Counted from the first letter of the stretch, positions 37,607-40,723 are shown. The stretch is 57,339 nucleotides of DNA from Escherichia phage vb_EcoB_G21-7 (PP848412.1); one strand, 5' to 3'. The notes: generated by a model not told the origin, from the letters alone. Numbers and translations: made by a program.

Positions 37607-37746
37607 TGTTGTAATCTCCTTTAATATTAGTTATGTAAAAGAGGCTCAGGGAATCTATCCCAAAGCCCCTTTGTGGTTGTTCTATTTCCAAGTTAGCCGA
37701 ACTGAGTCTTCGTTTACTTCACTTGCCGAAAGCTCGGTCGGGGGTT

Positions 37747-38439
37747 TTATTCCCCCGCTGGCTTTACTTCGATGTCTACTAGTGCTGAGATAGCTGTGTT
37801 GACGTTTGAACGAACGTTGAATGAAGCTGTTCCTTCTTTAACTCCTGTGATTAATCCTGCTTCGTCAATCGTAGCTAATGTTGGTGTCAATGCTGTGTAA
37901 GTCACAGATTTGTCAGATACGTTTTCAGGAGTGAATTTAACCACTGCTTGAAGAGTTTCCCCAACTTTAACTTCCTTAGTACTCATGTTGAACTCAATTT
38001 TCTTAGGTAGGATAGTAGGAGCTACTTGTTGCTCTTCTAAAGCGCCTTTACCTTGGAATGTTAATGAGTAAGTCACAGCGTCTTCATAACCGAACTCATA
38101 TGGGAAGTCAGTTAAGATTGCTTGTCCTACGTAAGTTAAACCACTAGGGAATTTAACACGAACACGTACACAGTCACCGTTAACCCAAGCTGCGTTCAAT
38201 GCTTGGAAACCTTCGTTGTCCTCTACGAACAATCCGTCACAGTCGATTGACCAAGACTTGTTACCAGCTTCGGCGTCGTCCCATCCGAAACCTTCTTTGT
38301 TAGATACGTCTAACGTTGCCGCTGTACGGTTTAATGTACCGCCTCGTTGTGCTGCTACTTTAGTCCATTCGCCAAGGTCGTTCTGTACCTCAATTAATAC
38401 TGCCGTACCACGAATGTAGCTAGATTTACATGCTTCCAT
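37747..38439 (-). CDS. major tail protein with C-terminal Ig-like (Big_2-type) domain
   Basis: Position before the chaperones; C-terminal Ig-like segment; followed by a stable hairpin. Confidence 0.55.
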   Translation of the reverse strand: MEACKSSYIRGTAVLIEVQNDLGEWTKVAAQRGGTLNRTAATLDVSNKEGFGWDDAEAGNKSWSIDCDGLFVEDNEGFQALNAAWVNGDCVRVRVKFPSGLTYVGQAILTDFPYEFGYEDAVTYSLTFQGKGALEEQQVAPTILPKKIEFNMSTKEVKVGETLQAVVKFTPENVSDKSVTYTALTPTLATIDEAGLITGVKEGTASFNVRSNVNTAISALVDIEVKPAGE

Positions 38440-38459
38440 TTAAAAGTCTCCTTTAATAT

Positions 38460-38894
38460 TTAATAGGGGTCTATTGTAGAATCGATTACCTCGAAGTCTA
38501 AGAATAGATATGCTCGCTCGTTTTTGTAAGTGCCGTTGGCAGCCTCCGTATAACGAACGTGGTCTAACTCCTTCTTACCTATACAGAAACCCTCTTCTAG
38601 TTGAAGTGGTGAGTTTATTAATAAGTCTACAAGGAAGTCAGTTAGGTTCTTTACCTCAAAGGAGCTATCGTAATCGCTCCAGATATGAAGAGTAAGGTTG
38701 TGCATTTTACCGATAGCGTCTTTAGAAATCGTTCTACCAGAAGTCAGCTCCTCTCCAATCTTAATGAATGGATACTCAGGTTTCTTATTAACTCCGTCCC
38801 AGATATTAATACCCTGCGCTCTGATTTCTTTAACGATAGCTCTTTGTAAAGCTACGGAAGAACTCCTTGCTCTGAAAGGTGGTCTCTTGCTCAT
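38460..38894 (-). CDS. head-tail connector / tail completion protein
   Basis: One of four small ORFs between the capsid and major tail genes. Confidence 0.4.
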   Translation of the reverse strand: MSKRPPFRARSSSVALQRAIVKEIRAQGINIWDGVNKKPEYPFIKIGEELTSGRTISKDAIGKMHNLTLHIWSDYDSSFEVKNLTDFLVDLLINSPLQLEEGFCIGKKELDHVRYTEAANGTYKNERAYLFLDFEVIDSTIDPY

Positions 38895-38906
38895 TTGTAA
38901 TTCCTC

Positions 38907-39287
38907 CTAAACGTTAATTCTACGGAGCTGTTCAACAAGAATGTCTGAATACTCTTCTAAAGCGTCTGTAAAGTTTGGGAAAGCCATGTGTCTAGCCGTT
39001 CCAGTCTCTAGGAAAACAGCGTAACCTCTGTGTCCGTAAGGGTTTCCTGAAACGTCTGACTCTACAATCCCTGTAACGCTTTTACCCTTTCCTTCTACCT
39101 CCGTCTTAGAGTTGATTCCATCATAGTAAGTACCTGTGTCAATGTTTCCTCTACGAACAATGTTGAATCTTACCGCAGTGGCCATTTGACTTGAGTTCTT
39201 AGTGACAACATCCTTAACCTCATTAACGAAGTCTTTCTCAATGGCTGAGAAATTAACCTTTTTGGTAATCTCTAAGAACCCTGCCAT
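38907..39287 (-). CDS. head-tail connector / tail component
   Basis: Synteny. Confidence 0.4.
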   Translation of the reverse strand: MAGFLEITKKVNFSAIEKDFVNEVKDVVTKNSSQMATAVRFNIVRRGNIDTGTYYDGINSKTEVEGKGKSVTGIVESDVSGNPYGHRGYAVFLETGTARHMAFPNFTDALEEYSDILVEQLRRINV

Positions 39288-39649
39288 ACGACTCCACTCT
39301 CCTCTTCTCTCCGAATATCCCTGTACTCGACTTTATAAGAGATTGTCTGGTCGGTTCCAGTAGTGTTGTCCCAGTAGACATTTAGAATCTCACCTGTGGA
39401 GTGTCGTCTGACAGCGTCTACCCGAAGGTTCTTCAACTCGAATATCTTATGCTGTATCAAGTAGCGTTTCTCCCACTGTTGGTCTTGGTTCTGTAATAGC
39501 TTTCCTTGAACTCTTAGGGAGCCTACGCTTACTGGAAGGTCTTTAACAACAACTGTTCCACGCTCTTTGTAAGAGACTGTTCCGTAGTCGTCGTCAGGGT
39601 CTTCCCAAGTATTGTATTGGATTAAATCCACAATGTCGTTGTAACGCAT
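39272..39649 (-). CDS. head closure / head-tail adaptor protein
   Basis: Synteny. Confidence 0.4.
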   Translation of the reverse strand: MRYNDIVDLIQYNTWEDPDDDYGTVSYKERGTVVVKDLPVSVGSLRVQGKLLQNQDQQWEKRYLIQHKIFELKNLRVDAVRRHSTGEILNVYWDNTTGTDQTISYKVEYRDIRREEESGVVWQGS

Positions 39650-39664
39650 TTGTAAGCTCCTTTC

Positions 39665-40069
39665 TTATAGCATGAAGAATGCTTTGTTACGGTACTCTCC
39701 TTGCTGTTCTAACCAGCGGTTCAAAATGCCATACCAGTTTGCATAGATGTCGTCCTTATAGTCGTAACGAGTGATGTCCGTAGACTCTGTTTTAAGGCCT
39801 TCAGAGTTAAGCTGTGACATACGGCTTGCTGTAAGCTCGTCGGAAATGTAATCCAACTCCATCGGGAAGTCGTTAACTTCCTTTTTAATGAACAAGCAGA
39901 TATGCTGTCTAGCACGCTTCTTCAAAACCTTCAGAACGTTGTCTCGGATAGTGCTGTTACCATAACCAAGCATAAGCTTTAAGTCGGTGATGTCAATGGC
40001 TTCTGTTTCAGGCGGTAGGGTAACGTCTTCAAACGACTTGAACAACTCTGTGTTCTCAATTAGTTCCAT
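39665..40069 (-). CDS. head-tail connector (DNA packaging/adaptor) protein
   Basis: Synteny. Confidence 0.4.
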   Translation of the reverse strand: MELIENTELFKSFEDVTLPPETEAIDITDLKLMLGYGNSTIRDNVLKVLKKRARQHICLFIKKEVNDFPMELDYISDELTASRMSQLNSEGLKTESTDITRYDYKDDIYANWYGILNRWLEQQGEYRNKAFFML

Positions 40070-40128
40070 TTAGCTTCCTCCTTAAAAGAAGACCAAGGCG
40101 ATTCGCCTCAGCCTCCTTGGGATAGTAT

Positions 40129-40569
40129 TTATTCTGCTGGTGCTTGAACAGTTACAACACAGTTAGCGGTTGCTCCAGAGCCATCTTTAGCTGTAGCTGT
40201 GATAGTTGTAGTACCTGCTGCTACGGCTGTTACTGTACCGTCTGCATAGGTAGCAAACTCAGGATTGCTGTTAGTGATTGTTAACTCCTTGTTAGTAGCG
40301 TCGTCAGGCGCCACTGTGAAAGTTAATGCTTTGCTTCCATCAGCAGCTAGTGACATAGTCTTTTGAGAAGCTGTTACTGTAGCTACTAAACGTGGATTAG
40401 TCTTAGCTGTAACGGCAGTTGACTTAGCACTCTCAACGCCTTCCTCAACAGCTGTCACCTCAAACTTGTATGAAGTGTCTGGAGTAAGTCCTGTAATGGT
40501 TTTCGTAAGCTCTGCTACGCCTTCCTGAACCTTTACTCCATCTTGGTAAATATTATAAGTCTTTGCCAT
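40129..40569 (-). CDS. Ig-like/FN3-like domain protein (possible capsid decoration)
   Basis: Thr/Ala/Val-rich beta-sandwich-like repeats (TFTVAPDDATNKELTITNSNP...TVTAVAAGTTTITATA); follows the capsid gene. Confidence 0.5.
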   Translation of the reverse strand: MAKTYNIYQDGVKVQEGVAELTKTITGLTPDTSYKFEVTAVEEGVESAKSTAVTAKTNPRLVATVTASQKTMSLAADGSKALTFTVAPDDATNKELTITNSNPEFATYADGTVTAVAAGTTTITATAKDGSGATANCVVTVQAPAE

Positions 40570-40723
40570 TGCTTTTCCTCCTGCTGTGTGATAAAGTAAA
40601 AGAGGCTACGGAACATTTCCGCAACCTCTCGTTTAGCTTACTAGAGGCTTGCCCCTCCGTCTTCCCAAGTCAGAGTAACCGAGTCCTCAGTAACCCCGCT
40701 GGCTTGAAGATTCTTGGGGGCTG

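Follow-up and report, generated by a model that had tools for sequence, protein, structure and literature searches.

The regions that follow the major capsid and the major tail tube genes of the phage deposited as Escherichia phage vb_EcoB_G21-7 (PP848412.1; the window, throughout, is this whole stretch of 57,339 nucleotides) are, in our reading, probably a pair of 3'-terminal recoding cassettes of the late operon, whose short C-terminal peptide tags would recruit a separately encoded protein, ORF146. At the level of sequence and comparison with relatives we identify a slippery heptamer at the capsid gene, conserved open -1 frames beyond both genes, homology of the tags and of ORF146 to complementary parts of one fibronectin type III (FN3) domain, and terminators. 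Frameshifting at the two genes is well supported by the comparison and appears highly likely; that a tag docks ORF146 we hold to be about an even call.

The window represents an Enterococcus faecalis Saphexavirus, with 100% identity to Enterococcus phage vb_EcoA_C-3 over the 5.3 kb tested and with 73 matching phage records. In the list of open reading frames (ORFs) all genes of the region lie on the minus strand, and hence we read it as the reverse complement; in this orientation the 12-nucleotide repeat CCCCGCTGGCTT, on which an earlier reading of both regions had centered, becomes AAGCCAGCGGGG. Matches to the Pfam profiles PF25209 and PF06199 bear out the identification of the neighboring genes as those for the major capsid and major tail proteins. 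In a global alignment the two cassettes line up collinearly from end to end, as paralogues, with the same order of elements in both: shift region, tag, stop codon, terminator, the sequence AGCCTCTTTTAC and a ribosome-binding site (Table 1).

The mechanism that we propose is as follows: 1) A minority of ribosomes would slip into the -1 frame on G_GGA_AAG beside the capsid stop, and a minority likewise near the end of the tail tube gene, in a G-run or at the A_AAG before the stop. 2) The slipped ribosomes would translate 23-28 more codons and then stop, giving minor tagged forms in which the capsid protein is extended from 268 to 296 residues and the tail tube protein from 230 to about 252. 3) FN3 strands C-G would be supplied apart, by the N-terminus of ORF146, which has its own ribosome-binding site and a Big_2 domain, and the tagged capsid and tail subunits would recruit it by beta-strand complementation, rebuilding a whole FN3 domain. 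4) The frequency of frameshifting would set the number of Ig-like (Big_2) decorations on head and tail, and an intrinsic terminator 9-10 nucleotides past each tag stop would probably attenuate transcription into the downstream genes.

Proposed shift sites and conserved -1 frames at the two genes

The zero frame of the capsid gene ends in a heptamer of the X_XXY_YYZ type, G_GGA_AAG, which abuts the stop codon and is invariant along with it in 15 of 15 Saphexavirus sequences, including that of the divergent fHoEfa01; the stop itself may be TAA or TAG. The identical heptamer is the -1 site of the phage lambda G/GT genes, where it yields two products in a fixed ratio, although there it lies in a tail assembly chaperone gene, whereas here it lies in a capsid gene and abuts the stop. 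The tag that the -1 frame would add shows the typical features of FN3 strands A and B, namely an N-terminal proline, an S-V-x-L-x-W pattern and the strand-B tryptophan, and is nearly invariant in the 15 Saphexaviruses, even in fHoEfa01 with its diverged flanks. The trans-frame capsid protein is predicted to contain the junction peptides ...VAAGK-VTAPK / NLQASGVTEDSVTLTWEDGGASL and to end in ...AAGKVTAPKNLQASGVTEDSVTLTWEDGGASL.

At the tail tube gene the slip may take place either at G_GGG(_G), whose position corresponds to that of the capsid heptamer, or at A_AAG, which is part of a GTAAAG that is invariant even in distant relatives. Both candidates would be one-tRNA slips, and the relatives vary at this point (GCG GGG TAG; GCA GGG GAG TAG). 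The predicted junction peptide is ...PAG-GIKPPTELSASEVNEDSVR, and the trans-frame tail tube protein is predicted to end in ...PAGGIKPPTELSASEVNEDSVRLTWK or ...VKASGGIKPP..., depending on the site.

In every relative the -1 frames run open just past the strand-B tryptophan of the FN3, ending exactly at the next residue or residues, while the other frames contain stops; for the tail cassette the frame is open in 7 of 7 haplotypes, with 1-4 stops in the others. The ORF in the -1 frame is also conserved as a coding sequence, in that the peptide is kept across genera and the differences are concentrated at third codon positions. Comparisons of the capsid tag between lineages give 6/5/12, 6/4/12 and 3/2/10 differences at positions 1/2/3, and the capsid and tail tags differ from each other with a similar coding signature (5/5/13 over 20 codons; 4/5/13 in a 19-codon alignment).

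Further evidence comes from relatives that appear to shift in the opposite direction. In EC99P1, EG103P2, EC55P2, the metagenomic contig L020 and Carnobacterium phage cd2, ...CCC TAA closes the capsid gene, and it is the +1 frame that holds a homologue of the tag, (P)NAPQNL..VTLTWE followed by a stop; in the Bacillus phages 000TH010, for which a frameshift is annotated, and PBC4, an ACA CCC TAA/TAG site is followed by a complete FN3 domain. It is hard to explain why two directions of recoding should lead to one peptide unless that peptide is made.

Two records carry a tag in frame with its gene. In phiM1EF2 (L014, LC547238, 3062-3820) the tail tag is joined to its gene by a 1-nucleotide insertion (GCGAGGG), and the annotated tail protein is 253 residues long; in EF-P10 (L003) the capsid G-run is one G longer, so that the capsid tag continues the capsid reading frame. 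Either homopolymer sequencing errors or natural variants in which all subunits are tagged could account for these two cases.

Table 1. Features of the capsid and tail tube regions of the window, with z-scores relative to shuffled sequences
Feature	Coordinates	Strand	Details
Major capsid protein gene	40724..41530	minus	268 residues in zero frame; ORF list; Pfam PF25209 (Phage_capsid_4), e-value 4e-15
Capsid gene 3' end		minus	GCG GGA AAG TAA; sequence
Slippery heptamer G_GGA_AAG, proposed -1 site	40727..40733	minus	abuts the capsid stop; zero-frame register
Capsid tag, putative FN3 strands A-B	40641..40727	minus	28 codons, VTAPKNLQASGVTEDSVTLTWEDGGASL, then TAG; -1 frame translation
Terminator-like hairpin, capsid side	40598..40630	minus	14 base pairs, then UUUUACUUU; -21 kcal/mol, z -5.75; 10 nucleotides after the capsid tag stop
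ORF146	40129-40569	minus	ribosome-binding site AGGAGG at 40577-40582; starts at strand C (MAKTYNIYQDG...), then Big_2
Major tail tube protein gene	37747..38439	minus	230 residues, tube domain and in-frame Big_2; PF06199, e-value 5.7e-28
Tail tube gene 3' end		minus	GTA AAG CCA GCG GGG GAA TAA; sequence
Tail shift region	37753..37767	minus	GTAAAGCCAGCGGGG, includes the 12-mer; candidate -1 slips G_GGG(_G) or A_AAG
Tail tag, putative FN3 strands A-B	37682..37765	minus	K-ASGGIKPPTELSASEVNEDSVRLTWK, then TAG; -1 frame translation
Two small hairpins	37726..37757	minus	CGGGGG(AAUAAAA)CCCCCG and CCGA(GCUU)UCGG; fold -16.1 kcal/mol, z -2.05
Terminator-like hairpin, tail side	37637..37672	minus	then UUUU; -21.1 kcal/mol, z -3.9; 9 nucleotides after the tail tag stop
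Tail assembly chaperone-like ORF	37167..37607	minus	follows the tail cassette; own ribosome-binding site AAAGGAG; not FN3

FN3 homology divided between the tags and ORF146

ORF146 opens with MAKTYNIYQDGVKV...TGLTPDTSYKFEVTAV, the counterpart of FN3 strands C-G, after which comes a Big_2 domain (Pfam e-value 1.7e-11). Against the Pfam fn3 profile (PF00041; length 84, cut-off 25 bits) ORF146 alone scores 22.5 bits, which is below the cut-off, and covers only profile positions 48-82. When the capsid tag is joined to it the score rises to 42.8 bits, and with the tail tag to 39.3 bits, the match in both cases spanning positions 2-82. Eight shuffled tags joined to ORF146 gave 22.1-29.0 bits and no full-length match (10-82 at best), and peptides from the other frames gave 22.2-22.3 bits over the C-terminal part alone (44/48-82). 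A full-length match above the gathering score was obtained only with a tag and ORF146 combined.

We also constructed a hidden Markov model (HMM) of the tag exclusively from sequences outside Saphexavirus and searched it against the six-frame translation of the window. It recovered exactly two sites, the capsid tag (e-value 9e-12) and the tail tag (e-value 3e-5), with the next best match at about 0.9. Likewise, an HMM of truncated FN3 N-termini recovered ORF146 alone (e-value 1e-18), and apart from the two tags and ORF146 these searches detected no tag or receptor in the window. The close homologues of ORF146 all start at strand C as well, with strands A and B absent. In GenBank they are labeled 'major tail protein', 'chitinase', 'peptidase', 'fibronectin type III domain protein' or 'Ig-like virion protein', of which the first three are probably artefacts of Big_2 or FN3 similarity.

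Ig-like or FN3 extensions that are appended to capsid and tail proteins by frameshifting are well known, including in T3 (PMC5009743, PMC6316719). Lactobacillus phage A2 makes such -1 extensions of its capsid (gp5A/B) and tail (gp10A/B) proteins, and the cps and tsh genes of the Listeria phages PSA, A118 and A500 are extended by -1 or +1 shifts at a CCC beside a stop codon or a pseudoknot (PMC5009743). The window resembles these phages in that, within one phage, the capsid and tail tube genes alike would have the shift at their extreme 3' ends, in that the slippery site adjoins the stop, in the Ig/FN3-like nature of the extension, and in the minor longer structural protein, here predicted from the sequence. 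It is unlike them in that the extension comprises merely 23-28 residues and two beta-strands, while another protein, with a translation start of its own, carries the remainder of the domain. The extension here stops after strand B instead of holding a complete Ig-like/FN3 domain, and since full coverage of the fn3 profile is reached only when ORF146 is joined, the window departs from the plain type of frameshift-appended domain.

A second point of comparison is gp17.1* of Bacillus phage SPP1, in which roughly one in four tail tube subunits receives an FN3 domain of 87 residues through an experimentally established +1 shift at CCC_UAA (PMC6316719). The capsid genes of phages related to the window, the EC99P1-like and the Carnobacterium phages, share with SPP1 the ACA/AAA CCC TAA site and, after it, (N)AP.NL... 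of an FN3, and display of FN3 on a subset of the subunits is what we propose here as well. The window differs from SPP1 in the direction and site of the shift (-1 at G_GGA_AAG) and in the split of the FN3 after strand B. In the literature searched we found no case in which the domain is divided at the end of strand B and its remainder carried by a separate, chainable protein, and nothing relevant on Saphexavirus frameshifting, cryo-electron microscopy, virion proteomics or split FN3 decoration. The proposed frameshift extensions are of a known kind, and the split FN3 is what is new.

As a purely functional analogy, the proposed interaction resembles the donor-strand complementation of chaperone-usher pili and the engineered SpyTag/SpyCatcher and split FN3 systems, in which another polypeptide supplies the one or more strands that an incomplete Ig-like fold lacks, with stable and specific attachment, non-covalent or covalent, and with daisy-chaining possible. 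It differs from these systems in that there is no homology, in that two N-terminal strands would be donated from a C-terminal tag, and in that we see no evidence of an isopeptide bond. Complementation between fragments of FN3 was reportedly described by Dutta and colleagues in Protein Science in 2005 (14:2838; cited in PMC11666773).

Tag and truncated FN3 units chained in relatives, and possible decay of the tags

In fHoEfa01 (L018, PV296017, 2487-3996) ORF146 is replaced by two genes after the capsid tag, orfA and orfB. The product of orfA combines a truncated FN3 and a Big_2 domain and ends with an A-B tag in frame (...PKSVRAFNKTTDSVEVSFEKGE, then the stop); directly after it orfB starts MTTYNAYLDGKKV at strand C and codes for a truncated FN3 with further Ig-like domains. 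In terms of sequence, the pair reads as a daisy chain of split FN3 junctions. The same chain recurs in an unrelated metagenomic contig (L019) around the protein P0008: the upstream gene's -1 frame reads ...APKFLVVRPLSESSVKLDWE up to its stop, P0008 itself ends in ...VKNLVASKTTARGTTLTWQ, and the next gene starts VNYKVYQG. In the E. faecium phage IME-EFm5 (L022, NC_028826, 1367-1677), which has a different type of capsid protein (about 400 residues, with a protease), the capsid -1 tag VTAPGSVATQDVTATGVTITAV is followed by a stop, a terminator and a 58-residue ORF (gp44, annotated as 'major tail protein') that consists of FN3 strands C-G only.

These arrangements lead us to a tentative generalization, to which we give slightly less than an even chance: phages of enterococci and their relatives may have a natural split-FN3 'tag and catcher', in which a frameshifted A-B hairpin is completed by a separate C-G protein (ORF146; the 58-residue ORF of IME-EFm5), which can be chained (fHoEfa01 orfA-orfB; P0008 and the next gene), and the copy number of which would be set by the efficiency of frameshifting and perhaps by ribosome-dependent unmasking at the terminator or Shine-Dalgarno sequence. 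If frameshifting occurs, the Saphexaviruses, which are widely used as candidates for E. faecalis therapy, would make two virion proteins that are not annotated, an extended capsid and an extended tail tube protein, and ORF146 would be a decoration protein of head and tail. If the docking is true, it would represent natural protein-fragment complementation in virion assembly and a route from a frameshift-appended domain to a detachable, chainable module, and would offer a ready-made small tag for the display of cargo on these phages.

Several observations weigh against the mechanism that we propose for the window. With respect to the shift itself, the 3' end of the tail tube gene has no canonical X_XXY_YYZ heptamer, a slip in its G-run would re-pair poorly in some relatives (GCA GGG), and no good slippery motif was found in L019 or in IME-EFm5 (AGG GAG TAA in the latter); RNA structure 3' of the capsid shift site is no better than in shuffled sequences (z -0.9); and no frameshift is annotated at either gene in the annotated Saphexavirus records examined. 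With respect to the tags, the tail tag has little third-position bias within Saphexavirus (10/5/6), and no gene for a truncated FN3 adjoins it. Finally, in the AlphaFold2 model of P0003, a protein with a truncated FN3 and a C-terminal tag, the truncated FN3 and Big_2 domains are confident, but the tag is disordered (predicted local distance difference test, pLDDT, below 50) and undocked in cis. The model hence provides no evidence of docking in cis, and is neutral for an interaction in trans. A Foldseek search with it returned just generic Big_2 and Ig-like matches, e.g. lambda gpV and T5 pb6.

The missing receptor beside the tail tag would also be expected if the tags were remnants, now in decay, of a frameshift-FN3-Big_2 extension that had been continuous until a stop and a new start divided it, with the tags untranslated or inconsequential and only the terminators and the free-standing ORF146 at work. 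Continuous versions do exist in the Bacillus phages, and in EC99P1 a single TAG is all that interrupts the frame which the tag and the downstream ORF still share. Yet the open frames and the peptide are conserved, with coding-like substitutions, across lineages with about 65-70% nucleotide identity or less (Saphexavirus, the EC99P1-like phages, Carnodivirus, IME-EFm5), and the slip sites are conserved too. Moreover, tags are also found in frame at the C-termini of real proteins, where they are certainly made, and all ORF146 homologues lack strands A-B, although one would not expect an FN3 lacking a sheet to be maintained on its own. Taken together, we regard decay as fairly unlikely.

The repeated 12-mer, terminator-like hairpins and other RNA structure

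The original prediction interpreted the 12-mer and the G/C hairpins next to it as RNA stabilisers, processing sites or partial terminators that set the stoichiometry of capsid to tail transcripts. The 12-mer and the hairpin on which it was based are present: the 12-mer occurs in exactly two copies in the window, at 37753-37764 and 40694-40705, and the hairpin CGGGGG-TTTTATT-CCCCCG lies at 37739-37757. However, 495 distinct 12-mers recur within the window, and a repeated 12-mer is on its own unremarkable and weak evidence. Nor is the exact sequence conserved, the capsid copy being AATCTAGCGGGG, AAGCAAGCGGGG or AAGCCAGTGGGG in relatives and the tail copy AAGCCCGCGGGG, AAGCCCGCAGGGG or AAGCCAGAGGGG, with AAGCCCGCGGGG or a further diverged form in every other genome examined. 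The two copies are not equivalent either: in the collinear alignment the tail copy spans the end of the tail gene (KPAG), whereas the capsid copy lies 27 nucleotides deeper into the extension, and the tail copy is placed opposite the capsid slip site and not opposite the capsid 12-mer. The variation in relatives, the non-equivalent positions and the number of other repeated 12-mers rule out a conserved nucleotide motif.

The -1 frame offers a better account of the sequence than an RNA element. The capsid copy reads (Q)ASG(V) in this frame, and the few changes in the 12-mer regions among the 15 Saphexaviruses are synonymous in it (GCC>GCA, AGC>AGT, TCG>TCA, AAG>AAA) but would change amino acids in the zero frame. 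In the same manner, the C-runs are the Ala-Pro and Pro-Pro codons that open the FN3, and the G-runs are glycine codons at or near the shift site. Folding lends weak support to the hairpins beside the 12-mer: those of the capsid side are no better than shuffled sequences (z -0.9 and -0.3), and the pair on the tail side is moderately better (z -2.05), although the first of this pair takes in the G-run itself, and a stimulator of frameshifting would be looked for 5-9 nucleotides downstream of the slip site. There is no informative covariation in the pair because its columns are nearly invariant, and these hairpins may be either frameshift stimulators or a by-product of the Gly and Pro codons. A scan of 37400-41000 with Rfam returned no family match, only a chance match at an e-value of 0.97.

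The claim that a classical T-run is lacking proved true only of the small hairpins beside the 12-mer; each region as a whole has a strong GC-rich hairpin followed by a U-run, at 40630-40598 and 37672-37637, as expected of rho-independent terminators. The capsid-side hairpin is conserved, with wobble-compatible changes, and that on the tail side has two base pairs with compensatory double changes in 6 of 15 sequences. Both are likely to be partial terminators, and in this sense the original prediction is partly borne out: the hairpins could lower downstream expression, although they are others, 3' of those that it indicated. The presence of these real terminator-like hairpins close by, along with the moderate fold of the tail pair, is what can be said for RNA elements at the 12-mer. 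Given that the 12-mer is kept only as -1 frame codons, with its copies at non-homologous positions, and that the hairpins beside it have no U-run, we consider this explanation decidedly unlikely. The earlier observation is real but was misread: the identity of the 12-mers is incidental, and what underlies it, in our reading, are two split-FN3 recoding cassettes, each with a terminator after it. For annotation, this implies that 'intergenic structured elements' after abundant structural genes need to be checked for recoding before they are labeled as RNA elements. A second 12-mer, AGCCTCTTTTAC, is also common to the two cassettes (40596-40607 and 37635-37646, minus strand) and corresponds to the 3' arms of the terminators with the U-run.

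The tag region of EC99P1 (L004, 1712-1790) and of EG103P2 (L005, 1736-1814) folds into a long-range helix of very high stability (z -5.6 and -5.2, respectively), in which the UCCCC just 3' of the CCC_TAA shift site is paired to the Shine-Dalgarno sequence (GGGGG) of the Ig-like ORF that follows. This suggests that translation of the tag would unmask the ribosome-binding site, i.e. translational coupling. The tail stem of these two phages has one compensatory change. Such pairing, as well as the near-equal spacing of tag stop and terminator in the two cassettes of the window (10 and 9 nucleotides), would fit a regulatory role, in which the tags are made but matter because a ribosome stopping 9-10 nucleotides before the terminator masks the 5' arm of its stem, or in the EC99P1-like phages opens the helix that hides the Shine-Dalgarno sequence, coupling the expression of ORF146 and the downstream genes to frameshifting. 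Transcription and translation are, however, thought to be only loosely coupled in Firmicutes, and regulation leaves unexplained both the conservation of an FN3 A-B hairpin peptide and the tags in frame at protein C-termini. We regard it as unlikely to be the function of the tags, but it is compatible with the structural role and the two are not exclusive.

The capsid-side terminator has a further feature, in that AGCCTCT is found both at the tag stop (AGC CTC TAG, 40641-40646) and in the 3' arm of the hairpin (40600-40606), on the minus strand; the 5' arm, AGAGGTT, could pair with either copy, which would allow an alternative helix of 7 base pairs overlapping the stop codon. The duplication is what one would look for if a second recoding event produced a continuous capsid-FN3-Big_2 fusion, by a bypass of the hairpin of about 45 nucleotides like that of T4 gene 60, from CUC_UAG to the repeated AGCCUCU; the alternative would be read-through of the tag TAG. 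Read-through could join the tag and the receptor in EC99P1 and EG103P2, where they share a frame, but not in the window, L020, cd2 or fHoEfa01. For the bypass, the frame relation of tag and receptor differs among the window, fHoEfa01, L020 and cd2, and the receptor frame of fHoEfa01 has no matching landing codon. Every receptor ORF has, moreover, its own strong ribosome-binding site and start codon. The varying frames and the receptors' own ribosome-binding sites exclude read-through and bypass as general mechanisms, and a continuous fusion by either route appears highly improbable to us.

Further along the operon, the chaperone pair of the window (36932-37607, minus strand) seems to require a +1 shift in place of the usual -1. 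The sequence in the G frame is ...NNTGSLPRGGGRRGR, and in the +1 frame it is ...CPEEAEDEDELPKL... on to ...FDYFD and a stop. The chaperone gene has no in-frame X_XXY_YYZ heptamer, and the likely site is UUG_CCC_AGA (37278-37286, minus strand), with CCC slipping to CCA.

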